Virus record (IMG/VR): IMGVR_UViG_3300030329_006012
Location: 126,226-190,225 of that record
From: a virus
Reading direction: 5' to 3' (one strand)
DNA: 64,000 nt
Under the pieces are notes generated by a model, which was given only the letters and a program-made list of their open reading frames with translations, was not told the DNA's origin and ran no database searches. Made by a program: the position numbers and the translations under genes. Position 1 is the first letter of the stretch, and each line of letters starts with the position of its first letter. This document shows positions 4,437-61,408 of this stretch, piece after piece.

Positions 4437-4693
4437 TGAGATGGTTAGTTTTATTTATGCTGGTTGCGTCCTCGTGTGGCTCGCCTCTTTCGGTTGCTGC
4501 AGATGACGACCCTCGCTTCTGCTCCGAGAACTACCCCCACGACCAGTCGCCTGAGCTGTGTGAGTCTAGTTCGTATGGTGACTGCTGTGCTTGGGAAATC
4601 GAAGAAGGTGGCGAAACATGCCGTTATGACTATTGCTCTTTCTACTCTTCCACCCCATGTCAGTGGGAGCTACAGTACACGGAGTGTCACTAA
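4436..4693 (+). CDS. Cys-rich lipoprotein
   Basis: Lipobox-like LVASSC; several further Cys in the mature part. Confidence 0.65.
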   Translation: MRWLVLFMLVASSCGSPLSVAADDDPRFCSENYPHDQSPELCESSSYGDCCAWEIEEGGETCRYDYCSFYSSTPCQWELQYTECH

Positions 4694-5067
4694 TGGCCAC
4701 ACACAAAGAGAGTAAAAGCTTCAGGGCCATCTGCGAAGAGTTTAATTTAAGGTACAAGCTGAACGACGCAGGTGAACCAGTGTCTCCCACTCGCAAGAGG
4801 GTTTCACCTGAAGACCATCTCTACGACCTCCGCGATGGAGCCGTCGGAGTTCACATATCGAGGGAGACAAAGAAGAAATATACTTTCTCAAAAAACAAGC
4901 TTGTGAGAATGGGGTGTAGTGTTATACAAGATGGCGACATGGAGGGGAACTTTTCAGTAAGCAAAGAGTGCCTGCTGGAAGTTGCCAAGGAGCTTTCCTG
5001 CGTAAAGAAAAACAGAACCTTCACAGATGAGGAAAAGCAGGCGATCAGAGAGAGGCTTAAAAAATGA
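4693..5067 (+). CDS. Hypothetical protein
   Basis: TAATG coupling; start MATHKES. Confidence 0.7.
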   Translation: MATHKESKSFRAICEEFNLRYKLNDAGEPVSPTRKRVSPEDHLYDLRDGAVGVHISRETKKKYTFSKNKLVRMGCSVIQDGDMEGNFSVSKECLLEVAKELSCVKKNRTFTDEEKQAIRERLKK

Positions 5068-5270
5068 AAACAAAAAACAGAGATTCTTTTAATGATGACT
5101 TCGCAACCATTGATGGGTTTATGTCTTTCTTCAAGTATAAGACAGTCAGCGAGCTGGCCACAGAGTCGGGATTAAATACCAAGATTGTCTCTAAAGTCAT
5201 CAAGCAGATGTTGAAAAACGGCGATGCCATTAAGCGAGGCCGAGCTTACAAGTACCCCAACGGACGGTAA
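5064..5270 (+). CDS. Small winged-HTH-like protein
   Basis: TVSELATESGLNTKIVSKVIKQMLKNGDAIK. Confidence 0.6.
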   Translation: MKTKNRDSFNDDFATIDGFMSFFKYKTVSELATESGLNTKIVSKVIKQMLKNGDAIKRGRAYKYPNGR

Positions 5271-5271
5271 G

Positions 5272-5481
5272 ATGAGGAAAGTTGCCGCAGGAACAAAAAT
5301 AAAAGCACCTACCGAGCTTGGCATTGATTATGGGATCGTTATCGAACATCAGCCTTCTCCGTACTCTAGGGACGTTTATTTAGTACAGTGGGGAGACAGC
5401 ACTCAAACCCTCTTTGAATTAAGAAAGGAAAACTTAATTTCAGAGGAGCGAAAATGTTCAAACAAGCGAAAAAGAAACTAA
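5272..5481 (+). CDS. Small SH3-like hypothetical protein
   Basis: YGIVIE...YLVQW pattern. Confidence 0.5.
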   Translation: MRKVAAGTKIKAPTELGIDYGIVIEHQPSPYSRDVYLVQWGDSTQTLFELRKENLISEERKCSNKRKRN

Positions 5482-5600
5482 TTAGAGGGGCAATGGATGG
5501 TGTGCTGGTTTTATACCTGCGTAGCCTCCTAACTACCGAGAAGATGGTGCAAGTCCTTAAAAAGAAAGCAGAAAGGTTTTTGCAGGATAAAGGAACTTGA
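5454..5600 (+). CDS. Hypothetical protein (48 aa)
   Basis: GAGGAG SD; not in ORF track. Confidence 0.5.
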   Translation: MFKQAKKKLIRGAMDGVLVLYLRSLLTTEKMVQVLKKKAERFLQDKGT

Positions 5601-5625
5601 CAGGATCTCGCAAAGGTGGTATAAT
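5597..5625 (+). promoter_or_regulatory. Consensus sigma70 promoter
   Basis: TTGACA-17 bp-TATAAT with TG extension, upstream of the MoxR ATPase. Confidence 0.85.
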
Positions 5626-5695
5626 GGGGATACGTTTTGGCATATCAGCCTGTTTTTAAAGGTCTTTTAGAGATCACTTTTACCTTGGAGAACCG

Positions 5696-6781
5696 ATGAC
5701 TATCGATTTTAAGACATTCAACAAAACCGCCCCCCTTATTCTTGATTCTCGCTATCCTGTCCTCCTTCGAGGTCGCCACGGTATTGGAAAATCTCAAGTG
5801 GTTTATCAGGTCGCCAAAAAGATGCGACTCCCTGTCGTAGAGCGCCGAGCCTCGCAAATGACCGAGGGAGATCTCTTGGGTATCCCCTCTCCAGATGGCA
5901 TAAGCATTAATGGAGAACAGGCGTCTAAGTTCCGCCCTTTTGACTGGCTAGTGCAAGCATGTACGGAGCCAGTCATTTTGTTTTTTGATGAGATTGATCG
6001 TGCAACGATTGAGGTTCGTCAAGGCATTTTTGAACTTACTGATTCTCGTAAACTGGCCGGCTGGCACCTTCACGATGATACTGTGATTTGCGCCGCGATT
6101 AATGGTGGCGAGCATGGCTCCCAATATCAGGTAGGGGAGATGGATCCAGCCGAACTAGATCGTTGGGCTACTTTTGATGTTGAGCCAACGGTGGAGGATT
6201 GGTTGAGTTGGGCCAAGGGCACTGTAAATGAAATTATCTGGGACTTTATTAATCAGAACCGAAAGCACCTAGAGCATCTTGATGATTTTGAGCCCAACAA
6301 GGTGTATCCTTCGCGTAGATCGTGGGATCGCCTTAATCAAACACTGGCTCTTGCCGATGCCTACTCTAACCCTAGATCTCCCGTGGTCTTTAATTTAGCC
6401 TCTGTGTTTGTTGGCTTTGAAGCTGCAATCGCCTTGACGGACTTTATCAAAAACTACCAAAAAATTGTTACAGTCAAAGATATTCTCAAGGATGGCAAGA
6501 TTGAACTTACTGAGGGCTTTGGGATTAACCAGCACTCCGCACTGGTAGAGAAAATGGAAGCAGAAGGGTCGTTCAATTCACTCCTAAAGAAAAAGGAGTT
6601 AAAAAATCTTGCGGCCTACTTTAAGACCCTTCCGTCAGAGGTGGCTATGAAGCTGTGGTATTCTCTCACCAGTTCCGGTGGTGATATTCAAAACACGATC
6701 AATCTACACCCTCTCATAAAGGAAGACTTGGTTGCAATGCTCACCAGCGCAGAAGATGATTCTGCAGAACAAGATTCATAG
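5696..6781 (+). CDS. MoxR-like AAA+ ATPase
   Basis: Walker A GRHGIGKS, Walker B FFDEIDR, MDPAELDRW, PSRRSW. Confidence 0.9.
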   Translation: MTIDFKTFNKTAPLILDSRYPVLLRGRHGIGKSQVVYQVAKKMRLPVVERRASQMTEGDLLGIPSPDGISINGEQASKFRPFDWLVQACTEPVILFFDEIDRATIEVRQGIFELTDSRKLAGWHLHDDTVICAAINGGEHGSQYQVGEMDPAELDRWATFDVEPTVEDWLSWAKGTVNEIIWDFINQNRKHLEHLDDFEPNKVYPSRRSWDRLNQTLALADAYSNPRSPVVFNLASVFVGFEAAIALTDFIKNYQKIVTVKDILKDGKIELTEGFGINQHSALVEKMEAEGSFNSLLKKKELKNLAAYFKTLPSEVAMKLWYSLTSSGGDIQNTINLHPLIKEDLVAMLTSAEDDSAEQDS

Positions 6782-44268: not shown

Positions 44269-47073
44269 TTGATGGGTGGCCTAGCAGGACATATGTCTCA
44301 TTTATATGATAACCCTGATCTCACTTTCGGAGAGATAGAGGATATTTTTATTAAGGCGAGCTCTGGTGCCCTCGTTGGCACCGAGAAGACCGATGGTCAA
44401 AATATCTTCCTATCTTATTCTGTTAAAAACAAAAAAGCCGTGGCTGCACGGAATATAACTAATATCAAAAAAGGCGGCATGACCGCATCAGAACTGGCCG
44501 ATAAGTTTGCTGGGCGAGGTAATCTGGAAAAATCTTTCACAGATTCCTTTGCCGCCTTTGAAAAGGCAGTCAACATGTTTCCACTAGAGAAGCAAATAGA
44601 TATTTTTGGCCCTGATGCAAACATATGGTACAATGCCGAAATTCAAGATCCTCGCACATCGAATGTAATTAATTATGATGATAAATCCCTAACTATTCAT
44701 CGAGTGGGCCATAAAGAGTTTGATAAGCAAAGCGGCAAACCACTAGATAAAGATGTTTCCGCCCACGCCGAACAACTGGAAGATGCACTGGGCAATATAC
44801 AATCTAACGCGGGTAGGGAAGAATATAAGGTTCAAGTAAACGCCTTAAAAAATTTGGACTCTCTGGGTAATGATGAGGCGCTAAATGTTGCCCTGTCTCG
44901 TCTCTTTAACCTGATGGAGTCAAATCATCTTACAAAATCAAACACAGTAATGGACTTTTTATCTAAAAGGGTTAAAGAAGTTATAAATAAGGTGATCCCG
45001 GAAGCGGATGATGATCTAAAACACGCGGTACTCGAAAGAATTTTCAAAGTAAAGGGCTCCAACCTAAGAAAGATTATTAAAATGATCGACCCTGAAGACA
45101 CCGCTCAGATCAAGAAAGTTCGAAACCTCATCGATAAGGCTGCCAAGGTAGCTACTGCTTCGATTTTCCCTCTAGAAGATATTGTTCACGACTTTTCCGT
45201 AGAAATGCTGAAGGGTTTAGAGTCCGCGTTTGTATTAGACAACGCTAAGGAAGTTAAAAGATTGAGAAGTGAAGTTGCCGAGGCGATAAAAGCAATCGAG
45301 AAGTCAAACAACGAAGAGGCTCTTGGGATTCTCGCAAAGCAAATGAAGAAGCTGAAAGATGTTGAGAATGTATCTACTGCAGCTGAGGGTTTTGTTTTTG
45401 ACTACGACGGTGTTTCTTATAAGTTTACTGGCAATTTTGCACCAGTTAATCAACTGCTTGGACTGTTTAGGTATGGCCGTGGCAACGTTCCAGCAATGCA
45501 AATTGACCTAGAAGAAGACTTGGGAGAGTCAGGGGTCAAGGCAGATGTAGCCTTTATTCCAGGTTCATTCAAGCCACCACACAAAGGTCACTTAAAGTTG
45601 ATGAAGGATTACCTAAAGTATGCCGACAGGGTTGAGGTGTTGATATCTGAGCCTAATATGGGAGGCGATAATGTCCGATGGATCAATCTGCCCCCAAGGA
45701 AAGAGGGTGATGCACCTTTGGAGCTAATGATTGATGCAGATACTGCGGCGGACTTGTTTGAACATTATATTGAGCTTGAAGGTCTCTCTGATAAAATAAC
45801 CGTTCCAAGAATTTGGAATGGTGGCTCTAACAACCCAATACAATATATATTTGGAAAGATTTCTGACTGGGAAAGTCAAAAAAAGAATATGAATGTTGTC
45901 CTCGGCGTTAGCACAAAAGACGAGGGCGATGAGAATAGATTTAAGGATAATAAATCAAAATCACCATTTAAAGATCAGGAGTATGTTAGAGTAAAGGATA
46001 TTCCGCTGCCGCCTGACCCAACCAAACTTCGGGCGAATGATTTTAGAAAGTCAATTGCAAAGGCTTGGTCTACTGGCGATCTGGGCTCTATATCCAGATT
46101 CCTTCCTGAAAAATGGGTGGCTGCTCATGAAACACCGGCGAAGGCCGCGCTAGACTTTATAGATATGATTGGTGACGCGCCGGTAAAAGAGAAGGAAATA
46201 AATGAAGCTTCATCTTGTGCGGGTGGTGCAATTCAGGGCTCCAGTGGCGGTCAAGAACTTGAAGACACTCTAATTAGAGAAGAGGACGAAGATATGAAAG
46301 AATACATGATTAGCAGAGAAGAATTTATAGAGGAGTTGTTCCTTCGGGAAAAAATAAGGGAAAAACTCACCAAAGCCCTTATCAACGAGAAAATAGAAGA
46401 GTCCAAGGTTCGTGATGCCATTAGGGCTATGATACAGGAAGAAGTCAAAGATGCACCTTACAAAAGCACAGGGATCAATGAGTTGGAAACTTTGTTGAAA
46501 AAGATTATCCCCGTCATAGAACCCGACTATAAGAGCCTGACAACCGCATCAGAACAAAGAGAGTCTTTTCGGGCCCATATTTTAAACGCTGTGCAGAACT
46601 CTCTGTCGCCCACAGGCGCGTCGGGTGCCATGCATCGCGATGACATTGGTGTGTTGGATTTACCAAGCGAAGAGGATTTCGGACTTGAAGAAGATGGGCC
46701 TAAAGAGGAAATAAATATTGCAGTTAGTGATGATAAATTTATTGACATCGACGAGAAGCCGCCAACAGAAGAGGATGAGGAAGAGAAGGAATTTTCACTA
46801 GAAGGTGAAGAAGAGACCGGAAGAAATTTTGCTTCTATGACTTGGGGCCGCATTGAAACAAACATTGTTGACTCTTATCGCAAACTATCGAATAATAAAG
46901 ATCGCGACTTGTTTTATGATTATCTAATCGCCAATTTGAAACTTTATTTTGATAAATTTGAAGATGAGCTTTCCTCCATCGTCGATGAACCAGAGAGTGA
47001 CATCTATGATCAGGAGACTAATAAATCTCCAGAAGAAGACTTTGAACTAGGCGACGAAGAAGCAGCGATTTAA
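44269..47073 (+). CDS. Ligase-like nucleotidyltransferase + HIGH-family (cytidylyltransferase-like) fusion
   Basis: EKTDG (motif I), NAE, EGFV, YKFTG; PGSFKPPHKGH. Confidence 0.65.
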   Translation: MMGGLAGHMSHLYDNPDLTFGEIEDIFIKASSGALVGTEKTDGQNIFLSYSVKNKKAVAARNITNIKKGGMTASELADKFAGRGNLEKSFTDSFAAFEKAVNMFPLEKQIDIFGPDANIWYNAEIQDPRTSNVINYDDKSLTIHRVGHKEFDKQSGKPLDKDVSAHAEQLEDALGNIQSNAGREEYKVQVNALKNLDSLGNDEALNVALSRLFNLMESNHLTKSNTVMDFLSKRVKEVINKVIPEADDDLKHAVLERIFKVKGSNLRKIIKMIDPEDTAQIKKVRNLIDKAAKVATASIFPLEDIVHDFSVEMLKGLESAFVLDNAKEVKRLRSEVAEAIKAIEKSNNEEALGILAKQMKKLKDVENVSTAAEGFVFDYDGVSYKFTGNFAPVNQLLGLFRYGRGNVPAMQIDLEEDLGESGVKADVAFIPGSFKPPHKGHLKLMKDYLKYADRVEVLISEPNMGGDNVRWINLPPRKEGDAPLELMIDADTAADLFEHYIELEGLSDKITVPRIWNGGSNNPIQYIFGKISDWESQKKNMNVVLGVSTKDEGDENRFKDNKSKSPFKDQEYVRVKDIPLPPDPTKLRANDFRKSIAKAWSTGDLGSISRFLPEKWVAAHETPAKAALDFIDMIGDAPVKEKEINEASSCAGGAIQGSSGGQELEDTLIREEDEDMKEYMISREEFIEELFLREKIREKLTKALINEKIEESKVRDAIRAMIQEEVKDAPYKSTGINELETLLKKIIPVIEPDYKSLTTASEQRESFRAHILNAVQNSLSPTGASGAMHRDDIGVLDLPSEEDFGLEEDGPKEEINIAVSDDKFIDIDEKPPTEEDEEEKEFSLEGEEETGRNFASMTWGRIETNIVDSYRKLSNNKDRDLFYDYLIANLKLYFDKFEDELSSIVDEPESDIYDQETNKSPEEDFELGDEEAAI

Positions 47074-48785: not shown

Positions 48786-49163
48786 ATGAAAGAAACCTGG
48801 AAGAATAAAAAGTATTTTCAAGGAACTAATAAAAACTACTCAGTATCTAAAGTTCTTAGAGAAAAGAAAAAAGTTACAGATGAGTTTGAAGCTATATTTA
48901 ATTCTTTAAGTTTAGAAGAAGTTATTTCACTAAAGCTTGAATTAGCTGCTAAGTCTGCAGGATCAAAGATGTATGGTATTCCTATTTATAAATACCTTGA
49001 CTTAATTGTGAAAGATGCTATTATTAAATACGCCCTCAGTGCCTGTCATTCAAAAGCTGAAGCTCAGAATTTTCTTGGCCTCTCTAGTAAAGATTGGATG
49101 GAGCTCTTAAAAGGATTCAATCCTGACCCCTACTTTGATGAAGAAAAATTAGATAATTCATAA
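48786..49163 (+). CDS. Fis-family-like HTH protein
   Basis: KDAIIKYALSACHSKAEAQNFLGLS resembles the Fis/HTH_8 pattern I..AL....N...AA..LGIS. Confidence 0.55.
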   Translation: MKETWKNKKYFQGTNKNYSVSKVLREKKKVTDEFEAIFNSLSLEEVISLKLELAAKSAGSKMYGIPIYKYLDLIVKDAIIKYALSACHSKAEAQNFLGLSSKDWMELLKGFNPDPYFDEEKLDNS

Positions 49164-49202
49164 ACTTTAAGCATACTTATATATGATGGATAGGAGAATG
49201 CA

Positions 49203-51557
49203 TTGTTCGGAAGTAAAAGTTCTAAAAAAGCAATAATACCGATTTTAACTTTAAAGAATACTGTATTTTTCCCAAATACCGTAGTTCCGTTATTGGTAGG
49301 TAGAGAAAAGTCTCTAAAGCTGATCGACGACGTTATTAGGACAGGGACTGTGTTAGGGGTCATAGCCCAAAAGAGCGCCGAAACAGAAAACCCAGAAATA
49401 GAAGATCTGTATGGTGTCGGCACTTTAGCCAAGATTGTTAAATTCTCTAAAAATTCTGAAGGATATTATAATATAATCATCGAAGGCTTATCAAGATTCG
49501 AGATAGAGGAGTTTAGAAATACTGAACCATACTTTACAGCAGAAATAAAAGAGCTTCCAGACACAGCTTCTTCAGAGCTCTCGGCCCATGAACTGCCAAT
49601 TCTTTTTGAAACCCTCAGAGAAACGGCCTATGATATCTGCATGTCTTTGCCAGAACTCCCAACCAGTGTACGGGGATTTATAGAGACGGTGAACGAGCCA
49701 GGAATGTTAGCAGATATTGTTGCCAGCAACCTTGGCCAAGATACCAAAGAAAAGCAATCAATATTGGAGACAATAGATGTCGCTGATCGGATGATGAGAG
49801 CGTTGGAGCTATTAGGCCGAAAGCACGAAATGCTCACACTTTCAGATAAAATAAATAACTCGGTCAAAGAAGAAATTTCCAAAAATCAAAAAGAGTATTA
49901 TCTTAGGCAACAGTTAAAAGCCATCAATAGCGAACTTGGCGAAACAGCCGAAGAGAACGAAGATCTTAATAACTTAAAAGAAAAGATGAAAACAATTGAT
50001 CTACCAGAAGATGTTGTAAAGACCGTTACTAAAGAAATTAAGAAGATGCGAAATATGCAGCCAAGTCAGGCAGAATATAATGTGGCTTTAAACTATGTCG
50101 ACGCTCTCCTTGAATTTCCTTGGGATACCAAAACAAGAGACAGTCTAGACATAGAGAATGTTCAGAAACAATTGGACGCAGATCATCATGGCCTTGAAAA
50201 AGTGAAGGAAAGAATTGTAGAATATTTAGCAGTTCGAAAATTAAAAGACAATATGGCCGGCCCAATCCTTTGCTTGCTGGGCCCACCAGGAGTTGGAAAA
50301 ACATCTCTTGGGAAATCAATTGCTCATGCCCTTGGCAGGAAGCTGGAGAGAATCTCATTAGGAGGGGTATCCGACGAGTCAGAGATCCGAGGCCATCGCC
50401 GAACCTACATCGGCGCCATGCCAGGAAAGATTGTCAAATCATTTACGAAATTACAAGTTAATAATCCCCTTATTTTACTCGACGAGATCGATAAAATGAG
50501 TAAAGACCACAAAGGAGATCCAGCTTCGGCAATGCTTGAAGTATTGGACCCAGAACAAAACAATAGTTTTATGGATCACTATTTTGATGTTCCTGTCGAT
50601 TTATCGGACACGCTATTTATTGCCACCGCTAACGACATAAGTACAATTCCTGGCCCACTAAGAGACCGCATGGAAGTCATAGAACTTTCGGGCTATACTT
50701 ATGATGAGAAAGAAAATATTGCTAAAAAACATCTTATTCCAAAGCAGGTAAAGAAAAACGGGATTACAGAAAATAATATCATTTTTAGAGACAAGGCCCT
50801 TACAAAGTTGATTCTTCAATATACTCGTGAAGCCGGCGTTCGGAGCCTAGAGAGGGAAATCGCCAAGGTGTGTCGCCAAGTCGCTGCAGAAGTAGCGAAG
50901 GGAGAGGAAAAGCCTGAAAATATAATTAAGATTATCAACAAAAAGAACTTGGAAGACTTCTCAGGGCCCACAAAGTTCGACATAGAGGCCGACATGCGAG
51001 CCCGTAATCCTGGCGTCGCAACCGGCTTAGCGTGGACAGCCGCCGGAGGAGATGTCCTCTACATAGAGGCAACTAAGATGGCTGGCAAGGGAAATTTATT
51101 GTTGACAGGGAAGATCGGGGATGTCATGTCCGAATCTGCCAAGACAGCCTTGAGTCTGATTAGGAGCAAGGCTAAGAAGCTGGGGATCGTAAAAGACGAG
51201 AAAGATAAGTTTTTAGAGGATGTAGACTTGCACATCCACTTCCCTGCAGGAGCAGTGCCAAAAGACGGCCCATCAGCCGGTATAACTATCAGCACAGCCC
51301 TTGTCTCTCTCTTGACGGACAGGAAAATTAGGATTGACACTGCAATGACAGGAGAAACAAGCCTCAGAGGATTGGTGCTTCCCGTCGGCGGCATTAAGGA
51401 AAAAGTAATAGCAGCCCACAGGCTTGGTATTAAAAGAATTATTCTTCCTCCGAAAAATGAGAAGGATATGAAAGACATCCCAGAGAATATCAAAGAAGAA
51501 GTAGACTTCTTTTTTCCAGAGACTGTGGAAGAGGTTTTTGAATTGGCTCTAGAATAA
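49203..51557 (+). CDS. lon: Lon ATP-dependent protease
   Basis: LON N-domain, GPPGVGKT, LLDEIDK, PKDGPSAG catalytic Ser, PVGGIKEK. Confidence 0.97.
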   Translation: MFGSKSSKKAIIPILTLKNTVFFPNTVVPLLVGREKSLKLIDDVIRTGTVLGVIAQKSAETENPEIEDLYGVGTLAKIVKFSKNSEGYYNIIIEGLSRFEIEEFRNTEPYFTAEIKELPDTASSELSAHELPILFETLRETAYDICMSLPELPTSVRGFIETVNEPGMLADIVASNLGQDTKEKQSILETIDVADRMMRALELLGRKHEMLTLSDKINNSVKEEISKNQKEYYLRQQLKAINSELGETAEENEDLNNLKEKMKTIDLPEDVVKTVTKEIKKMRNMQPSQAEYNVALNYVDALLEFPWDTKTRDSLDIENVQKQLDADHHGLEKVKERIVEYLAVRKLKDNMAGPILCLLGPPGVGKTSLGKSIAHALGRKLERISLGGVSDESEIRGHRRTYIGAMPGKIVKSFTKLQVNNPLILLDEIDKMSKDHKGDPASAMLEVLDPEQNNSFMDHYFDVPVDLSDTLFIATANDISTIPGPLRDRMEVIELSGYTYDEKENIAKKHLIPKQVKKNGITENNIIFRDKALTKLILQYTREAGVRSLEREIAKVCRQVAAEVAKGEEKPENIIKIINKKNLEDFSGPTKFDIEADMRARNPGVATGLAWTAAGGDVLYIEATKMAGKGNLLLTGKIGDVMSESAKTALSLIRSKAKKLGIVKDEKDKFLEDVDLHIHFPAGAVPKDGPSAGITISTALVSLLTDRKIRIDTAMTGETSLRGLVLPVGGIKEKVIAAHRLGIKRIILPPKNEKDMKDIPENIKEEVDFFFPETVEEVFELALE

Positions 51558-51614
51558 ATGAAAGAGATAGTCAATATTAATAAACTTTCGTAAAAAAAGT
51601 AACTACTTAATTAC

Positions 51615-54149
51615 ATGAAAAGAAAGCACTATTTCCACATCTTCGGGCCTGACATCATAGAAAACGAAGACGGTGAACTGGTTCTTATAGAAATGAACCA
51701 CAATTGCTTTTTTCTAACTCCTTATGAATATTTTGAAGGAGTCAGGAATAATGTGAGCAGAGAGGCTCATTCTAGTTATTTTTCCAAAAAGGGCGCCCTC
51801 TCAATAATAAAACATGCACAAGAGAATAATTTAAAAAAAGTGGTAGTGTTTTGCAAAAAAAGACACTTTGCTACTAATGTTTACGATGACCTTTTAGAAA
51901 TCAAAGAAATTCTTGCAAAAGAGGACATATCCTTTAGTGCAATTGGTGTGGATCCGCTAGAAGAAGTTCTTAGTGGGGAGATCGAATTTTCCCAATACAA
52001 AGAGAGCCAAAGGCTCATCAAGAGCATGAACGATGATGATACACTTTATATTTCCAATACCCCAATTGAAGGAGAGTTTGAGGATCTATGGAATACCCCG
52101 TATAACAAAGGTCAATTTGACAAGTTTTTAAGAAAAGAAGGTGCAATCAGAGTACCCTCCGCAACACCGCACTCGTTTGACGAAGCGTCAGAATATCCAA
52201 ACTGCGTAATTAAGCCAGTCAACGAAGGGCAGGGTGACGGAGTAACTTTTTACAAATCCCCAGAGACGCCACTACTTTTGAAAAACGAAACCATGCAAGG
52301 GTACGAAGTGCCAAAAAAAGCAGAGCACCTTTACACCTATGCAAGCGGATCAGTCACCCCGGTCAGCGGCTTTGATACCAATCGAGCCACCGACATTCGC
52401 TCTAAGCTTGCTGTAGCTCCTGATGGAAGATGTTTTCCTCTCTTTACCTATAGGAAGTTTTCGCCCCACACGTTGCCACCAACTCTACCGAACGGCCACG
52501 TCCAACCGGAAGCTTTTTTAACAAACATATCTAAAGGAGGCTTCTATGGTTTTTGTAGTGAAGAGGAGGACAAGAAATTTTCAGAATTTGGCAAAAAGGC
52601 CGCATCCCTGTACTGCCAGTTTTTGAGAGAGTCTGATACTCCAAAACACATCTTGTGGACAGGTGGATATGATTCTACTTTTTATTTATTTTCGCAGGCC
52701 CTTAAAGGAGTGGTAAAGCCGATATATCTGTCCTCCATCGATGCAAGGGAGTCAGAGATCAGGGAGATCATTGCGATGATAAGGCTGAGCCGCCTGTTTA
52801 AAAAAACATTCCCGGATTATGCCGAAAATATGTTAGATTTTGATATTGTAACATCAATAGAGGAGGACGCCGAAGTTGAATTCAAGTGCACCCGCATTGG
52901 CTACGGAACATCGTTTTCCAAAAGAATGGGGGTACAAAATTCGAGAATAGCTCATTTTGCAAAGTCCCACAGTCACCCGCTGTATATGTGTGTGGAGAAC
53001 GAACACACCTCAAGAATGAGGAAACTGATAATTGAGTATGTTTCGCCAACGGAAGAAGGCTTTGTAATAAAGCAGCGGGAAGATTTTGATGAGATGGGGA
53101 AAACTCTTGATATATTTGAGAACATTATTTTCCCAATATTACATTTAACAAAAGAAGACATGCTCCGCATATCTCATAGGCTTGGCTTCCTCGACTTGAT
53201 GAGGGAAACATGGACGTGCTGGTTCCCTCGAAAGGGTAGCCCGTGTGGAGAGTGTGTGATGTGCCACGAAAGAATTTTGAAGCCGAAACAGAAGGTTGAC
53301 AAATCACGACAACCTGTAGTGGTTAGTTATTTCACGAGAAACGGAGACTATCCAGAATTCGCAGAAAACCTCAAGAAACAACTTCGTGCTGCCGGCATTG
53401 ATTACGAGATCCCGCTTCTTGTCCCCGCTCACGACAGAAGAACCACAATAAACCTAAGATGGAAGCTACTCAATGAGGCTATGGAGAAGTACAATAGACC
53501 ACTTGTTTGGCTTGACATCGACAGTGACGTGGCCAAAGGGGACCAATTTATAAGATTCTACGAGAATTGTGCAGATAATTTTGATTTTGTGGCAAGAGAT
53601 AAAATCCATATGCCCCATATGTTTTTCCGAAACGATTCAGAGCTAAGAGAGTTTTCAGGATGGTCTGTTCCGATTGACAACAGGTGGTCAGGAACTCAAC
53701 AATTTTACAATAACACCGCAGCCGGAAAAGAGATTTTGAAAAAGTGTCTTTCAATTCACGAATACGAGAAAAATCAAAATTGTTATGATGAACAGGTAAT
53801 CACCCTAGCTCTCAGAAAGGTGCGCCAAAAATATACCGCACTAGGGTTGCGATGTGCAGTCACAACACTACCGCCAGAATTCATTGTCTGCCGCTCGTGG
53901 ATGAAGAACGAACTGGAACACAAGGAACTTAAAAAACAAAAGATGGATTACGATAATCCTGCTGCAGTGGTAAAGTATATAAAGATAAACACTGCTGATG
54001 AAGATCGTGGATTGGGAATAGAGGAGGAGTACTATCATGCACCTTTTGTATTCGACCCCGAAGATGATTATGAAGCATCCTATATAGAAAAGAAACAGGG
54101 CCTTGCAGAGAACGAGGCAAGGCGCCTAAGTCGGGAGAACAAAAAATGA
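51615..54149 (+). CDS. Three-domain enzyme: circularly permuted ATP-grasp + QueC-like PP-loop + GT-A glycosyltransferase
   Basis: N-terminal GPD...LIEMN, IKPVNEGQGDGV, DIR, NISKGG; WTGGYDS...TWTCW...CGECVMC.ER; VWLDIDS DxD. Confidence 0.7.
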   Translation: MKRKHYFHIFGPDIIENEDGELVLIEMNHNCFFLTPYEYFEGVRNNVSREAHSSYFSKKGALSIIKHAQENNLKKVVVFCKKRHFATNVYDDLLEIKEILAKEDISFSAIGVDPLEEVLSGEIEFSQYKESQRLIKSMNDDDTLYISNTPIEGEFEDLWNTPYNKGQFDKFLRKEGAIRVPSATPHSFDEASEYPNCVIKPVNEGQGDGVTFYKSPETPLLLKNETMQGYEVPKKAEHLYTYASGSVTPVSGFDTNRATDIRSKLAVAPDGRCFPLFTYRKFSPHTLPPTLPNGHVQPEAFLTNISKGGFYGFCSEEEDKKFSEFGKKAASLYCQFLRESDTPKHILWTGGYDSTFYLFSQALKGVVKPIYLSSIDARESEIREIIAMIRLSRLFKKTFPDYAENMLDFDIVTSIEEDAEVEFKCTRIGYGTSFSKRMGVQNSRIAHFAKSHSHPLYMCVENEHTSRMRKLIIEYVSPTEEGFVIKQREDFDEMGKTLDIFENIIFPILHLTKEDMLRISHRLGFLDLMRETWTCWFPRKGSPCGECVMCHERILKPKQKVDKSRQPVVVSYFTRNGDYPEFAENLKKQLRAAGIDYEIPLLVPAHDRRTTINLRWKLLNEAMEKYNRPLVWLDIDSDVAKGDQFIRFYENCADNFDFVARDKIHMPHMFFRNDSELREFSGWSVPIDNRWSGTQQFYNNTAAGKEILKKCLSIHEYEKNQNCYDEQVITLALRKVRQKYTALGLRCAVTTLPPEFIVCRSWMKNELEHKELKKQKMDYDNPAAVVKYIKINTADEDRGLGIEEEYYHAPFVFDPEDDYEASYIEKKQGLAENEARRLSRENKK

Positions 54150-54517
54150 AAGAAGTAAAAACATCCTTTAAAGAAAAGACCATCGCGATTGATTTCGATG
54201 GCGTTATTCACAGATATTCAAAAGGCTTCCAGGGCCTCGACAATGCTTACGATCCACCAATGCCAGGCGCTCTTGAGTCAATAAAGGAACTAAAAAAGCA
54301 TGGGTATAGGTTAATTATCGTATCAAGCCGTCCCGTACCTCCCATTTTGGAGTGGCTGGATAAATATGAAATGAGCGAGTATTTTGACGAGGTTACGAAT
54401 ATAAAGCAGCCAGCCAGATACTATATTGATGATCACGCAATAAGGTTTGAAAAGGATATTTCAACAAACTGGGAAGATACAATGACTTTTATAAAAAAGA
54501 AGGAGAATTTAAAATGA
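54146..54517 (+). CDS. HAD-family phosphatase
   Basis: IAIDFDGVI, IVSSR, YIDD. Confidence 0.85.
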   Translation: MKEVKTSFKEKTIAIDFDGVIHRYSKGFQGLDNAYDPPMPGALESIKELKKHGYRLIIVSSRPVPPILEWLDKYEMSEYFDEVTNIKQPARYYIDDHAIRFEKDISTNWEDTMTFIKKKENLK

Positions 54518-54906
54518 AAAGAGCAATGTTTATTGGCAGGTGGCAGCCGATGCATAACGGCCACAAATGGCTCATTGGCCAGAAATTAAATAAAGGGGTT
54601 CCGACTCTGATCTGCGTAAGGGACATCCCGCCAGATGAAAAGAACCCATTCACCACAGAGCAGACTGTAGAGATGTTGGAGAAAGCATACGAGGACGACG
54701 ATGTTGTGGTTATGGTGATACCTGACATTGAAAGCGTAAATTGGGGTCGTGGTGTAGGATATGAAACTAACGAACATAAGCCGCCTCAAGATATTGGCTT
54801 TATATCTGCAACTGACATTCGGAACAAAATATCCTCCGGAGACGACTCCTGGAAGGACAACGTGGACGAAAAGATTCACGATCTGGTGGAGAAATATTTG
54901 AAATGA
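54514..54906 (+). CDS. HIGH-family nucleotidyltransferase (putative minimal sulfate adenylyltransferase)
   Basis: FIGRWQPMHNGH, ISATDIR. Confidence 0.75.
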   Translation: MKRAMFIGRWQPMHNGHKWLIGQKLNKGVPTLICVRDIPPDEKNPFTTEQTVEMLEKAYEDDDVVVMVIPDIESVNWGRGVGYETNEHKPPQDIGFISATDIRNKISSGDDSWKDNVDEKIHDLVEKYLK

Positions 54907-55505
54907 AAAAGAAGAGACTTTTTAACCCCAAGAGAGGGATTAACGCTAGTGAGGAATATGGATGCGTTTTTATACACGTCCCAAAGGCAGCCGGAAACTC
55001 AGTAAAGTCTATTTTTAAGATTAAGTCACATGCTCACAGGCCAGTATCGGAGCACGAACCTGAACTACTAGAAGAGAATTATGTTTTTTCTTTTGTCAGA
55101 AATCCGTGGGATAGGTTTGTGAGTGCCTACTTCTTTCTACGTGGCGGCGGAATGGGATGGTATGATAAAGAGTCTAAGAAAAAATATATTGACAAGTTCT
55201 CATCATTTGATGATTTTGTTAAAAATTCAAACTATGATGATCTGATGAAGAATCAAATCCATTTTAGGCCACAATGTTATTATCTTGATGGGCCCGTGGA
55301 TTTTCTGGGAAGATATGAAGATCTTCAGTCTGGAATTGACACAATTTGCGATCAACTAGAAATTCCAAGACAGCAGTTGCCCCATAAAAATAAATCTAAC
55401 CACAAGGATTACACCAAATATTATAATGACGAAACAAGGAAAATTGTTGCTGAGAAATACGCTGACGATATCAAAGAGTTTGGATACAAGTTTGGAGGAG
55501 GCTGA
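54903..55505 (+). CDS. Sulfotransferase (family 2-like)
   Basis: FIHVPKAAGNS (5'-PSB), FVRNPWDRFVSAY (3'-PB). Confidence 0.9.
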   Translation: MKKKRLFNPKRGINASEEYGCVFIHVPKAAGNSVKSIFKIKSHAHRPVSEHEPELLEENYVFSFVRNPWDRFVSAYFFLRGGGMGWYDKESKKKYIDKFSSFDDFVKNSNYDDLMKNQIHFRPQCYYLDGPVDFLGRYEDLQSGIDTICDQLEIPRQQLPHKNKSNHKDYTKYYNDETRKIVAEKYADDIKEFGYKFGGG

Positions 55506-55507
55506 TT

Positions 55508-56182
55508 GTGAAAAAAATACTCTATGTTAGGATGCCAAGAACTGGCTCCACTTCCCTAGTGGAATATTGCAAGAGCACCAAGGATGCCAGAGCCCTTGGC
55601 GGCGGCCAGTGCGGGTTTTGGCTCCCCCAAAAATTGGGCCACAGCATCCACAAATCTACGAACGTCCACCCCAACTTAGTCGAGTGTTGTCGATTGAAAT
55701 TGGGAGACGAGAAGTTTTCTGAGTTTATCACGTTTTCTTCTGTGAGGAACCCATTCTCAAGGGCCGTGTCTTCTTGGAAACACTGGTCTTGGCAGAGACA
55801 CGGAAACAAGCTTAGTTTTGAACAGTTCTGTGAAAGGTTAAAAAATAAAGATTATCCATCCAAGGTCGCCGAGTGGCATGCCGTCTCTCCATCAGATCAC
55901 CTCTTCACCTCTAGCGGTGAAATGTTGGTTGACTATATTGTGAGGCTGGAGAATATACAGGAAGATTTTGAAAAGATTTTAGCAGTTGCCGGCCATCCCA
56001 AGAGGGAAGTCCAGCACAGAAATCAGTCGGCCAAGAGCTATTGGAGTACCAAAGAATTACGCAAAAATGAACATTATTCCACATACTATAACGACAACAC
56101 AAGGAAAATCATAGGCGAAGTTTATAAGAGGGATATTGAGAGGTTTGGGTATGAATTTGAAGAAGCACCGGAGGAAGAATAA
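55508..56182 (+). CDS. Sulfotransferase (family 2-like)
   Basis: MPRTGSTS, VRNPFSRAVSSW, IVRLENIQEDF. Confidence 0.88.
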   Translation: MKKILYVRMPRTGSTSLVEYCKSTKDARALGGGQCGFWLPQKLGHSIHKSTNVHPNLVECCRLKLGDEKFSEFITFSSVRNPFSRAVSSWKHWSWQRHGNKLSFEQFCERLKNKDYPSKVAEWHAVSPSDHLFTSSGEMLVDYIVRLENIQEDFEKILAVAGHPKREVQHRNQSAKSYWSTKELRKNEHYSTYYNDNTRKIIGEVYKRDIERFGYEFEEAPEEE

Positions 56183-56928
56183 TGACTATTAGCAAGATTG
56201 TATATATTAACCTAGAGCATCGCACAGACAGAAAGGAGATACAAGAGGAGCAACTGAAAGCCTCTGGTATCCCATATGAAAGGTTTGATGCAATTTGCCC
56301 AACCTACGAGCAACTCGTCCCAGAGGATGGTGAATATCATGAGTTCTTCAAAAGATCAGTCCCCAGAATAAGAGACTATATGCTTCGCGAAAACAAAGCT
56401 CGCGGACGTGGTGTCTTTGGTGTGTATCTATCTCACTATAAAATTTTACAACGTGCCCTTGAAGAAGGTTGGGGTGATTTTTTGATATTGGAGGATGACG
56501 CAGTTTTCGGCGAAGAAACAATATCGGATCTTGTGTCTGCAGCAAACAATGAAGAATATTCAGACTGGGATATAATACGGGATGTCTGGGTTGCCAAAAG
56601 AGATATGGAACTCGAAAAGCTGCAACTCTCTTCACGCAAAGCATCCACCGTATATCTCAATGGAAAAGCAAAGGGTCTCTTTAGACACAGAAACTCAGAT
56701 ATACAATCTAAGTTCTATTCTGGGCCCCCACCTAATATTGTACGATGGGGTGGCGCCCACTTTCAGCTTATCCGAGCAAAGAGTTTGAAGAAGATTTTAG
56801 ATTTTATGGATAAAGACCATGTATATAATATAGATTCGATATATTGCACCAATCAACTTAATGTATATTGGTCGAAATTTGGCCTAAGCGGATTTTTCGA
56901 GCTTGGCACTGATATTCCAAAAGATTGA
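56182..56928 (+). CDS. Glycosyltransferase family 25
   Basis: YINLEHRTDR, FDAI, LSHYKIL, LILEDDA. Confidence 0.85.
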   Translation: MTISKIVYINLEHRTDRKEIQEEQLKASGIPYERFDAICPTYEQLVPEDGEYHEFFKRSVPRIRDYMLRENKARGRGVFGVYLSHYKILQRALEEGWGDFLILEDDAVFGEETISDLVSAANNEEYSDWDIIRDVWVAKRDMELEKLQLSSRKASTVYLNGKAKGLFRHRNSDIQSKFYSGPPPNIVRWGGAHFQLIRAKSLKKILDFMDKDHVYNIDSIYCTNQLNVYWSKFGLSGFFELGTDIPKD

Positions 56929-56947: not shown

Positions 56948-57127
56948 ATGCAAATAGATTTAACAAAGGTTGCCACAGCACTTATCACAACTTTAGTTGT
57001 CGGAGTCATGACATATCAACTAACAACAATCCGCCAACTTGAGATTGATAACGAACTCATTAAGATTCGCTTAGAGTACGTCGAGAAAAAGCTAAAAAAA
57101 GCCAAAAAAGGCCCTAAAAAACCCTAA
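56948..57127 (+). CDS. Small TM + coiled-coil protein
   Basis: One TM helix, then basic coiled coil. Confidence 0.55.
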   Translation: MQIDLTKVATALITTLVVGVMTYQLTTIRQLEIDNELIKIRLEYVEKKLKKAKKGPKKP

Positions 57128-57129
57128 TA

Positions 57130-57142
57130 AAATCAACTACTT
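57130..57142 (+). promoter_or_regulatory. IHF-consensus site
   Basis: AATCAACTACTTA matches WATCAANNNNTTR; ~95 bp upstream of a strong promoter. Confidence 0.55.
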
Positions 57143-57234
57143 ACGTACCATCCTTAACTACCTGTTTTTATTACACTTTTTCTCCTCGTAACACGCCGCG
57201 TCAAACTTAAAGCACTACTTTAGCTTTACATCGC

Positions 57235-57263
57235 TTGACACTTTACTTTAACTATGGTAAAAT
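57235..57263 (+). promoter_or_regulatory. Sigma70 promoter
   Basis: TTGACA-17-TAAAAT with TG extension. Confidence 0.8.
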
Positions 57264-57318: not shown

Positions 57319-57957
57319 ATGAAAAAAGCACTATTAGCGACCGTTATGGCGTTTTTGGTAAGTGGCGTGAGTTATGCAGACGAATTACGTTTGGAAGCTG
57401 GCGCATCCGCGAAGCTTGGCGATAATACGCTCACTGTTGAAGAGCAAACTCGTCATGATCTAAGCATTAGTGAAGACATGGTAACAAAGGCAGCTCCCTA
57501 TGAGCATACCGTGTTCGCAATCGGACGAGCCTTGGGCGACAATAATGCCGTTCAATTCCGTGTTCGAAACACAAACACTAATGGTACATCTGAGAACCGT
57601 TTATCTTTAGATTTAAACACCAGTGTATCTTTGCCTTATGGAATCGGGCTGCAGAATCGTTTACGATTGCAACTTGATGAAACCGGTGACATCACTACGG
57701 TTACTACTGATGACTTGCGTCTTCGTGAGCAAATCTCAGTAACTCGTACTGTTGCATTACCGTTTGTCAGCTTAGACCTCGCCGTGGGTGATGAAATCCA
57801 TGCCGATGCTAGTGGCATTACTGAGAACCGCATTCAAGCTTCTGCAACTACAGAGGTTTGTCCCGGTGTAACAGCGACAGCAGGATACTTCCGTCAGATG
57901 ATGACAGAAGGCGATGACGCAAATGTGGTCACGTTATCTGCTGCATTACGATTCTAA
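57319..57957 (+). CDS. Outer-membrane beta-barrel protein (DUF2490-like)
   Basis: Signal peptide ending SYA; alternating strands; terminal Phe (LSAALRF); AAGGAG SD. Confidence 0.7.
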   Translation: MKKALLATVMAFLVSGVSYADELRLEAGASAKLGDNTLTVEEQTRHDLSISEDMVTKAAPYEHTVFAIGRALGDNNAVQFRVRNTNTNGTSENRLSLDLNTSVSLPYGIGLQNRLRLQLDETGDITTVTTDDLRLREQISVTRTVALPFVSLDLAVGDEIHADASGITENRIQASATTEVCPGVTATAGYFRQMMTEGDDANVVTLSAALRF

Positions 57958-57980: not shown

Positions 57981-58007
57981 AAGAGCCCCTCGTGGGCTCT
58001 TTTTTTT
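57981..58007 (+). terminator. Intrinsic terminator
   Basis: AAGAGCCC-CTCGT-GGGCTCTT then T run. Confidence 0.9.
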
Positions 58008-58034
58008 GACAAAGCCCTACCTATGTGCTATAAT
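58006..58034 (+). promoter_or_regulatory. Consensus sigma70 promoter
   Basis: TTGACA-17-TATAAT with TG extension, overlapping the terminator T-tract. Confidence 0.85.
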
Positions 58035-58052
58035 GTTGACAGGAGGTGTAGC

Positions 58053-59426
58053 ATGAGCCTAGTTTTATTAAATGATAATCAACACCTGAAGCCTATTGTT
58101 TCTCCCGAAAGTTTGGAGTGGCGAAATCTGCGCCGTGATGCCTTCTGGCAGAACATTCCTGCTTGGCGGGAAGTAGATGAAGAAACTTTTTTAAATTATA
58201 AATGGCAAGAAAAGAATGCCATCACCAATCCGAAGAAGCTCATCGCTGCAGTGCAAGATATTGCATCTCCAGAATTCATTGCCGACGTGGAAGCTGGTTT
58301 TGGCCACGCTCCAATGGCGGTTAGAATATCTCCTTATCTTCTGGGCCTCATAGACTGGGAAAACCCATATACCGACCCCATCCGGCGACAATTCCTTCCT
58401 CTAGGCTCTCAGCTTGAACCAGACCACCCCATGTTGACGCTAGACTCCCTCCACGAGCAAGCAGACGCCCCTGTGGAGGGCTTAACTCATCGATACCCTG
58501 ACAAGGCCCTGTTCCTCGCTCTCGACACCTGTCCGGTGTACTGTCGCTTCTGTACGCGCTCTTATGCGGTTGGCCTAGATACCGATACCGTTGAGAAGGT
58601 GAGCCTCAAAGCAAGTCAGGAGAGATGGGGTGCAGCTTTAAAATATATCTCAGAAAGAAAAGAAATTGAAGACGTTGTGATTAGTGGCGGAGATATGTAT
58701 CGACTGAAGCCATCACAGGTTCTTGAACTAGGAAACGCTCTGCTTGACATTCCTCACATCCGACGATTTCGCTTTGCCACCAAGGGAATAGCAATTCAGC
58801 CGATGAAGATCCTCACGGACACCGATTGGACCGATGCAGTGACGAAGGTTTTTGAGCGAGGCCGAAAGATGCACAAGGATGTTGTCATTCACACGCACTT
58901 TAATACACCAAACGAAGTTACAGGAATTTCTCAGGATGCAATGAATTTATTGTTTGAAAGAGGTATCACTGTCAGAAACCAAGCAGTGCTTCAGGCAGGA
59001 GTGAACGATACCCCAGAACTTATGATGGACTTAATCAGGAAATTAGGATACATCAATGTGCAGCCTTATTATGTTTATGTTCACGACTTGGTTCAGGGAA
59101 CCGAGGACTTGAGAACAACGGTTCAGACTTCTCTTGACTTGGAGAAGGAAGTGCGAGGAATGACTGCTGGATTTAACATCCCTTTGTTTATTGTTGATAC
59201 CCTCGGCGGCGGCGGAAAAAGAGACATCCACAGCTACGAGCATTACAATCGGGAGACTGGAATTTCTGTCTACAAAGCGCCAGCAGTAAAGCGAGATAAG
59301 TTGTTTACTTATTTGGATCCGCTCCGCACATTGTCGCCATCTGTTCGTGCCGATTGGCAAGACCCCAACAAAAGAGAACAAATGCTTGCCGCTGCATTCG
59401 AGGAAGCAAGGAAAAACTCAAAATAG
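58053..59426 (+). CDS. kamA: Lysine 2,3-aminomutase family radical SAM enzyme
   Basis: THRYPDK, CPVYCRFCTR, SGGD, HTHFN, NQAVL, PYY...D; AGGAGG SD gives start 58053. Confidence 0.92.
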   Translation: MSLVLLNDNQHLKPIVSPESLEWRNLRRDAFWQNIPAWREVDEETFLNYKWQEKNAITNPKKLIAAVQDIASPEFIADVEAGFGHAPMAVRISPYLLGLIDWENPYTDPIRRQFLPLGSQLEPDHPMLTLDSLHEQADAPVEGLTHRYPDKALFLALDTCPVYCRFCTRSYAVGLDTDTVEKVSLKASQERWGAALKYISERKEIEDVVISGGDMYRLKPSQVLELGNALLDIPHIRRFRFATKGIAIQPMKILTDTDWTDAVTKVFERGRKMHKDVVIHTHFNTPNEVTGISQDAMNLLFERGITVRNQAVLQAGVNDTPELMMDLIRKLGYINVQPYYVYVHDLVQGTEDLRTTVQTSLDLEKEVRGMTAGFNIPLFIVDTLGGGGKRDIHSYEHYNRETGISVYKAPAVKRDKLFTYLDPLRTLSPSVRADWQDPNKREQMLAAAFEEARKNSK

Positions 59427-61301: not shown

Positions 61302-61408
61302 AAAAGTAAGTATGCAGAGATAACAATAAAAGTAAAACTTATCTTAAAAAGATCGATAAAACTACTTATTTGATAGAAAGTTATGGATAAAATCGAAAGA
61401 AGATTCTT

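Follow-up and report, generated by a model that had tools for sequence, protein, structure and literature searches.

Can a phage make the activated sulfate that its own sulfotransferases would consume? The question is raised by the virus of IMG/VR record IMGVR_UViG_3300030329_006012, which is 190,225 bp long and complete according to CheckV, and of which the last 64 kb were analyzed here (hereafter the window). The whole phage genome encodes two Sulfotransfer_2 proteins, one CysC, which is the single adenosine 5'-phosphosulfate (APS) kinase in the 190 kb, and one 130-residue nucleotidyltransferase of the HIGH superfamily, which we call mini-HIGH. Sulfur enters biology through the activation of sulfate, for which textbooks, to our knowledge, recognize two types of ATP sulfurylase. 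We consider it likely that the phage encodes its own supply of 3'-phosphoadenosine 5'-phosphosulfate (PAPS) together with the enzymes that use it. Mini-HIGH is the candidate sulfurylase, strongly indicated as such by gene fusion, by gene neighborhood, and by two either/or replacement patterns in bacteria. It probably also represents a third class of ATP sulfurylase, derived independently of the other two: a nicotinamide mononucleotide (NMN) adenylyltransferase (NMNAT) trimmed to a sulfate pocket. Such a class would be abundant in marine phages, would displace Sat in Dadabacteria-type genomes and CysDN in several marine Bacteroidota lineages, and with an APS kinase and a small phosphatase would make up the smallest known PAPS synthase, of ~450 residues.

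The genes and elements concerned are listed here by their positions in the window.

1631-1640, + strand: TAACTACTTA, a promoter-like 10-mer directly 5' of cysC
1649-2374, + strand: CysC, a DUF2061 segment plus APS kinase (PF01583, TIGR00455)
51600-51609, + strand: second copy of TAACTACTTA, 6 nt before the ATG of the first gene of the operon
51615-54149, + strand: 844-residue multidomain protein, first gene of the operon
54146-54517, + strand: capless mini-HAD phosphatase, 123 residues (PF00702, PF13419)
54514-54906, + strand: mini-HIGH nucleotidyltransferase, 130 residues (PF01467), candidate minimal sulfate adenylyltransferase (ATP sulfurylase)
54903-55505, + strand: sulfotransferase ST1, Sulfotransfer_2 (PF03567, phrog_3347)
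55508-56182, + strand: sulfotransferase ST2, Sulfotransfer_2, GTG start (PF03567)
56182-56928, + strand: GT25-family glycosyltransferase (PF01755)

In the mechanism that we propose, sulfate would take the place of NMN at mini-HIGH and attack the alpha-phosphate of ATP, giving APS and pyrophosphate, and the membrane-tagged CysC would phosphorylate APS to PAPS. The mini-HAD would pull or clean the pathway by hydrolyzing pyrophosphate or the by-product 3'-phosphoadenosine 5'-phosphate (PAP), and ST1 and ST2 would transfer sulfate from PAPS onto a glycan made or extended by the GT25 protein and the 844-residue enzyme. The gene content, motifs, fold, fusions, neighborhoods, and replacement patterns are observed; from them we infer the sulfurylase chemistry, the substrate of the HAD, and which glycan is sulfated and where it is located.

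Mini-HIGH is coupled to APS kinase by fusion and neighborhood

The mini-HIGH family comprises 3,187 relatives of the same size, with 1,053 representatives at 50% clustering. Among the longer homologues, 99 of 120 are fused to an APS kinase, 92 with the kinase first and 7 with the HIGH domain first, and the consensus of the fused kinase halves holds the complete APS-kinase motif set. The AlphaFold2 (AF2) model of a natural CysC-HIGH fusion showed two confident domains and a floppy linker (predicted template modeling score 0.63) and was uninformative on channeling. The co-occurrence with cysC that the sequence-only reading of this DNA had looked to in related phages was found: a cysC-like gene adjoins the HIGH gene in 40 of 45 related viral loci, and in the nearest viral relatives the order is ST-CysC-HIGH or CysC-HAD-HIGH.

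Two cultured phages carry fusions of ~245 residues, Xylella phage Sano (gp35, positions 5596-6333 of locus L046, NC_042344) and Stenotrophomonas phage DLP6 (AAY80_227, 4590-5321 of locus L047). In each, a truncated APS-kinase-like P-loop domain is joined to a mini-HIGH with the motifs GRxQPxHxGH, VR, YGRDVGY, and ISATxIR, and the proteins are annotated merely as "kinase" or as hypothetical. A cysteine dioxygenase is annotated 3.8 kb upstream of the Sano fusion, and a sulfotransferase is encoded elsewhere in the DLP6 genome.

Coupling to APS kinase shows a shared pathway only and does not say which step mini-HIGH performs. The protein might thus act otherwise on the APS/PAPS pool, either as a non-catalytic or regulatory partner of the kinase or by transferring AMP to selenate, phosphate, or phosphonate to give a donor other than PAPS, and the acceptor pocket of mini-HIGH, small as modeled, would suit another oxyanion as well. 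We consider this very unlikely. The full or near invariance of HxGH, R9, and ISxTxxR in the family argues for catalysis. The sulfotransferases encoded next to mini-HIGH carry motifs for PAPS binding, and genomes with CysC, CysH, and sulfite reductase, described next, need APS specifically.

Mini-HIGH stands where Sat or CysD is expected in bacteria

Bacterial genomes were scanned with a peptide pattern drawn from a 13-sequence alignment of the family (a 62-sequence alignment held no sufficiently conserved stretch), and the pattern placed the mini-HIGH family in 182 species genomes. One APS kinase and one CysH-type reductase, but neither Sat nor CysD, were present in all 24 genomes of the Dadabacteria type, many of which are closed chromosomes. 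Five closed Dadabacteria-type chromosomes were tested further and encoded sulfite reductase as well as canonical NadD and CoaD, above their cut-offs. Because NadD and CoaD are kept, mini-HIGH is not the housekeeping nicotinate mononucleotide adenylyltransferase or phosphopantetheine adenylyltransferase (PPAT) of these genomes. In a sample of 120 genomes from the same phylum, mini-HIGH was present in 78 and Sat in 18, and no genome had both.

The second pattern concerns CysD. Sampling Bacteroidia at class level proved too broad (mini-HIGH in 1 of 151 genomes), and the either/or test was made on a single marine family of Bacteroidota with 68 genomes. CysC is present in 55 of them. CysD adjoins cysC in 40 of the 55 and mini-HIGH adjoins it in 15; no genome had both, and none had neither (Fisher p = 8e-14, with no correction for phylogeny). 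Those with mini-HIGH were spread over at least four blocks of the genome listing. In this family mini-HIGH and CysDN (TIGR02039/TIGR02034) are therefore mutually exclusive occupants of the same seat beside cysC, whereas their folds are unrelated, CysDN being a PP-loop ATP pyrophosphatase combined with a GTPase and driven by GTP. An APS kinase without any other source of APS, and mini-HIGH in the seat of CysDN, are together what one would expect of a non-orthologous sulfurylase. An NMNAT role does not account for this replacement pattern, nor does a sugar-phosphate nucleotidyltransferase role.

Sulfotransferase genes occurred in each of five marine Bacteroidota genomes that carry the cysC-HIGH pair; in one case several of them lay within ~10 kb of it. 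Two Nitrospiraceae genomes (G025:C5:97465-98586 and G026:C18:8526-9650) have a standalone mini-HIGH in addition to a Sat-CysC fusion (open reading frames of 582-588 residues), so two sulfurylase types can coexist.

Mini-HIGH resembles a trimmed NMNAT

The sequence-only reading had called the 130-residue protein a HIGH nucleotidyltransferase and had further taken it for a minimal sulfurylase. The first of these assignments held. PF01467 was matched at 31 bits against a cut-off of 21, and the translation contains the motifs FIGRWQPMHNGH and ISATDIR, the former with the HxGH signature. H14, G16, and H17 were nearly invariant among 62 family sequences. R36, nearly invariant, and R79, invariant, have no counterpart in NMNAT; their placement relative to HxGH is putative, as read from the alignment. 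The second assignment survived in a changed form: fusion, neighborhood, and replacement speak for a sulfurylase, and the profile and structure searches placed the protein outside the Sat family and nearest to NMNAT.

The AF2 model of mini-HIGH (predicted local distance difference test score 95.6) is a HIGH Rossmann domain with only three strands. Its closest folds by VIA-align were NMNAT 1f9a (Z 14.2 over 127 residues) and PPAT (Z 14.0). Thermus ATP sulfurylase (1v47_B) came twelfth, its catalytic domain aligning over 124 residues with Z 10.6 and a root mean square deviation of 2.7, and other sulfurylases were found at Z 8.7 (2gks) and Z ~7.3 (1j70, 4maf, and 1x6v), showing that the catalytic-domain fold is shared. 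Sat surfaced in this wider search only; the top 50 Foldseek matches of the model included no sulfurylase. Sat, Sat-CysC, and PAPS synthase (PF01747; 1v47, 2gks, and 1x6v) thus belong to the same HIGH (HxxH) superfamily as mini-HIGH. Their catalytic domain aligns with the whole of the small protein and likewise fuses to APS kinase in either order, and the pathway position proposed for mini-HIGH is theirs. Unlike Sat, with ~380-570 residues, mini-HIGH has 130 and lacks the PUA-like N-domain. Its GRWQPMHNGH keeps HxGH but has the arginine one position further from the first histidine than in Sat, and GRGVGY stands in place of GRDHAG, in a loop that hhalign left unaligned to the GRD loop. Homology of mini-HIGH to Sat beyond the superfamily level was considered and rejected, the profile-profile match being weak and confined to the C-terminal end.

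Archaeal NMNAT (NadM; 1f9a and 1ej2) has GRxQPxHxGH, NP, and ISxTxxR in common with mini-HIGH, the last corresponding to the SGTxxR-type motif of NMNAT, and NadM-type enzymes were common in large phages in a search of deposited phage genomes. Mini-HIGH might accordingly be a minimal NMNAT that restores NAD+ in the infected cell, for instance to counter an NAD-depleting defense, with a kinase link resembling that of NadR-type NMNAT-kinase pairs. Yet its scores fell far below the curated NMNAT cut-offs (54 versus 127 bits for NF002243 and 42.1 versus 181.2 for TIGR01527). The profile alignment to 1f9a came in two pieces that skipped residues ~80-107, so that ~28 residues on the NMN side, the NMN-binding stretch, are missing, and the conserved R36 and R79 are additional. 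The company that mini-HIGH keeps also differs, consisting of sulfotransferases and a true APS kinase, not of NadV, Nudix, or a ribosylnicotinamide kinase, and the phage genome has no NadV/NAPRTase partner. NadD is already present in the Dadabacteria-type genomes, and nothing related to NAD explains the either/or pattern with CysD. An NMNAT role is in our judgment highly improbable. As judged from these alignments, mini-HIGH is a member of the HIGH superfamily that apparently arose by trimming from an NMNAT-like ancestor and lies outside the Sat family.

A tree of the HIGH domain (133 columns, 248 rows) was poorly resolved and implied at least 51 changes of architecture, a figure that is unreliable; it grouped the protein of the window with those of viral loci L001 and L004. 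The only other CTP_transf_like HIGH motif in the phage genome lies in a 934-residue protein (44269-47073, + strand; PF01467 at 2.8e-5, genome positions 171781-171882).

Several observations weigh against reading mini-HIGH as a sulfurylase. Its best sequence match is archaeal-type NMNAT (NF002243 at 1.5e-14 and, with the family profile, PDB 1f9a at 5e-16), and the same profile retrieved no sulfurylase chain from the PDB at E <= 10. The Sat family model was missed (PF01747, 15.8 bits, E = 0.0096, cut-off 24.3), hhalign gave the match to the Sat-domain alignment 27% probability over the ISxTxxR end, and the Sat motifs QxRNP(xHxxH) and GRDHAG are not reproduced. In the phage, cysC lies 52 kb from the HIGH gene, and no sulfotransferase is annotated near the kinase-HIGH fusion of Sano. 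The either/or counts are uncorrected for shared ancestry and come mostly from metagenome-assembled genomes, and exclusivity is not absolute, given that the two Nitrospiraceae genomes and two Saprospiraceae/Chitinophagales genomes have mini-HIGH plus Sat or CysD.

A small phosphatase belongs to the PAPS module

The gene overlapping that of mini-HIGH on its 5' side encodes a capless HAD phosphatase from a mostly viral cluster. It matched PF00702 at 30.2 bits (cut-off 26.4) and also PF13419, and its catalytic motifs DFDGV, SSR, and DD are intact. Matches to HAD-IIIA/GmhB-like models and to TIGR01689 were below cut-off. The 102 longer homologues of the mini-HAD all keep motif I with the catalytic aspartates; 93 are CysC-HAD fusions, and one each is HAD-CysC, HAD-HIGH, and sulfotransferase-HAD. 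Because 94 of 102 are fused to APS kinase, the mini-HAD belongs to the PAPS module, as the sequence-only reading had supposed. The order CysC-HAD-HIGH was seen in viral loci L003, L004, and L008. The HAD accompanies mini-HIGH in ~4 of 46 viral loci and in 0 of 80 bacterial loci, and in view of the bacterial count it is an accessory rather than a requirement.

Two substrates can be proposed for it. By analogy with kinase-HAD polynucleotide kinase/phosphatases, whose architecture follows the same logic, a PAP 3'-phosphatase would fit. Pfam, NCBIfam, and PHROGs gave HAD-type matches only, and the protein is not a member of the known PAP-phosphatase folds (CysQ/inositol-monophosphatase or DHH type); if it does hydrolyze PAP, it is a non-homologous analogue of those enzymes. 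An equally good proposal, again by analogy, is that it acts as a pyrophosphatase and would pull the unfavorable sulfurylase reaction. Fusions of APS kinase, sulfurylase, and pyrophosphatase exist in oomycetes, diatoms, and Emiliania (PMC2705460), and their logic of kinase, sulfurylase, and phosphohydrolase is mirrored in phages by the order CysC-HAD-HIGH and by the pairwise fusions. In the eukaryotic proteins, however, the second and third activities come from a Sat domain and a classical inorganic pyrophosphatase, whereas the phage domains in their place are minimal and unrelated to these.

The overlap of the HAD and HIGH genes, together with the one HAD-HIGH fusion, also bears on another alternative, in which mini-HIGH is a sugar- or polyol-phosphate nucleotidyltransferase of the TagD/HldC kind that with the HAD supplies the GT25 and GT-A domains with a nucleotide-activated sugar, PAPS being made from host APS by the phage CysC alone. 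The HAD has weak similarity to GmhB and to capsule phosphatases, TagD is similar in size to mini-HIGH, TagD and HldC align with its model at Z 7.0 and Z 6.2, and glycosyltransferase genes adjoin it. As the counts above show, however, the companion of mini-HIGH is nearly always APS kinase and seldom a HAD, and the HAD is itself fused to APS kinase. The fold of mini-HIGH is also far nearer to NMNAT and PPAT than to TagD and HldC, and the alternative leaves unexplained both the either/or pattern with CysD and the genomes that have CysC and CysH without Sat or CysD. We think it unlikely, and keep mini-HIGH as the candidate sulfurylase.

PAPS synthesis, sulfotransferases, and a possible glycan acceptor

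The remaining assignments of the sequence-only reading, an APS kinase gene 5' in the window and an operon with two intact sulfotransferases, a GT25 protein, and a HAD phosphatase, were upheld by family matches above cut-off. CysC scored 163.5 bits with PF01583 (4.9e-48) and 183.4 bits with TIGR00455 (cut-off 138.7), and it has all of the APS-kinase motifs (GLSGSGKST, DGDYYR, RDPKGLY, and FTGISDPF). Its N-terminal DUF2061 segment (5.4e-8; approximately 1649-1850 of the window) is a predicted membrane segment, and since the relatives in viral loci L001, L002, and L004 align to CysC from residues 1-6 on, this segment is retained among them. PAPS synthesis may thus be tethered to the membrane. No Sat, no PAPS-reductase/CysD/CysH-type gene, and no NadV was found in the phage genome; because a reductase is missing, the PAPS of the phage would serve sulfation and not cysteine synthesis.

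Sulfotransfer_2 is a family of carbohydrate sulfotransferases. ST1 matched PF03567 at 68.5 bits (1.3e-18) and phrog_3347 at 6.3e-26, and ST2 matched PF03567 at 61.3 bits (2.1e-16), the cut-off being 22. Each has both PAPS-binding motifs: the 5'-phosphosulfate-binding (5'-PSB) motif reads PKAAGNS in ST1 and PRTGSTS in ST2, and the 3'-phosphate-binding (3'-PB) motif reads RNPWDRFVS and RNPFSRAVS, respectively. ST1 had no sequence match among solved structures.

The GT25 protein is a member of its family by PF01755 (55.3 bits, 1e-14, cut-off 24) and has the acidic motif LEDD. Among solved structures it is closest to mimivirus R655 and human procollagen galactosyltransferase 1, and for this reason glycosylation of a fiber protein is as possible as the synthesis of a lipopolysaccharide-type glycan. 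Virion proteins, DNA, and the host surface had been named in the sequence-only reading as possible carriers of the sulfated glycan. The sole Pfam match of the 844-residue protein is a QueC-like, PP-loop domain at residues 503-553 (PF06508 at 9e-7; phrog_1550 at 3.6e-11) with the motif TGGYDS and a cysteine-rich zinc motif. Residues ~560-844 contain a DxD motif (DID), and their Atlas neighbors are viral clusters with PF03407, GT34, or GT8. A C-terminal domain of the GT-A fold, also named in the sequence-only reading, is probable from these neighbors, at the level of a lead.

Precedents and significance

Viral cysC is already known as an auxiliary metabolic gene, and deposited phage genomes include annotated sulfotransferases. 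A literature search found no description of a cytidylyltransferase-like or NMNAT-like ATP sulfurylase. The sulfotransferase and GT25 families are also neighbors in the genome of the T4-like marine Synechococcus phage ACG-2014f, where a sulfotransferase gene overlaps that of a GT25-like glucosyltransferase (gp234-gp235; positions 4968-6436 of locus L157). Genes for glycosyltransferases, a methyltransferase, and an epimerase form a cluster around the pair, and a tail-fiber gene follows ~1 kb downstream of it. A tblastn search with mini-HIGH against deposited phage genomes returned no Synechococcus phage, and ACG-2014f presumably relies on host APS or PAPS.

Should the enzyme activity be confirmed, the significance would reach well beyond this phage, as mini-HIGH would be a third type of ATP sulfurylase, of 130 residues. 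An annotation gap would be closed: sulfate activation would after all be present in bacteria of the Dadabacteria type and in some streamlined marine Bacteroidota, whose genomes seem to lack it. Viral cysC genes regarded as auxiliary metabolic genes would signify PAPS for sulfation and not for cysteine synthesis, and marine T4-like phages would be investing in self-sufficient sulfation, implying sulfated glycans on virions or on the surface of the infected cell. The protein would also offer a very small enzyme for the enzymatic regeneration of PAPS.

Operon structure and shared upstream elements

The six genes from 51615 to 56928 run head to tail. Of their five junctions, three are ATGA stop/start overlaps, and the others are an overlap of 1 nt and a gap of 2 nt. 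A Shine-Dalgarno (SD)-like sequence precedes every internal gene, and the arrangement agrees with the translationally coupled operon described from the sequence alone. A contig from the metagenome run of a different study spans 49000-56034 with 5 differences, and the gene order is for this reason not an assembly artifact. One difference is a G>A change at 55508 that gives ST2 an ATG start in the independent run where the window has GTG, which supports the start-codon call. A nucleotide search of deposited phages with the operon gave no match, and no RNA dataset was listed as containing it.

No SD sequence precedes cysC or the first gene of the operon. The 10-mer TAACTACTTA occurs twice in the 64 kb, before these two genes only, against a chance expectation of 0.06. 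Since it stands nowhere else, it points to co-regulation of cysC with the operon, and the shared element together with the absent SD sequences suggests a common promoter class from which the two would be co-expressed. The CTACTTA-type element AACTACTTA has four copies (1631-1640, 51600-51609, 57135-57143, and 61360-61368; 0.27 expected).

Directly 5' of the operon lies a full-length Lon protease gene (49203-51557, + strand) with substrate-binding, AAA+, lid, and S16 proteolytic domains. On the other side, after the GT25 gene, a small open reading frame with a hydrophobic stretch (56948-57127, + strand) is preceded by CTACTTA 12 nt from its ATG, the same spacing as at the start of the operon. 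Next come a DUF2490 beta-barrel-type protein (57319-57957, + strand), with a near-perfect sigma-70 promoter (TTGACA-17-TAAAAT) at 57235, and a KamA-family radical SAM aminomutase (58023-59426, + strand; TIGR00238, 239.8 bits, above cut-off), with a perfect one (TTGACA-17-TATAAT, with TG) at 58006.

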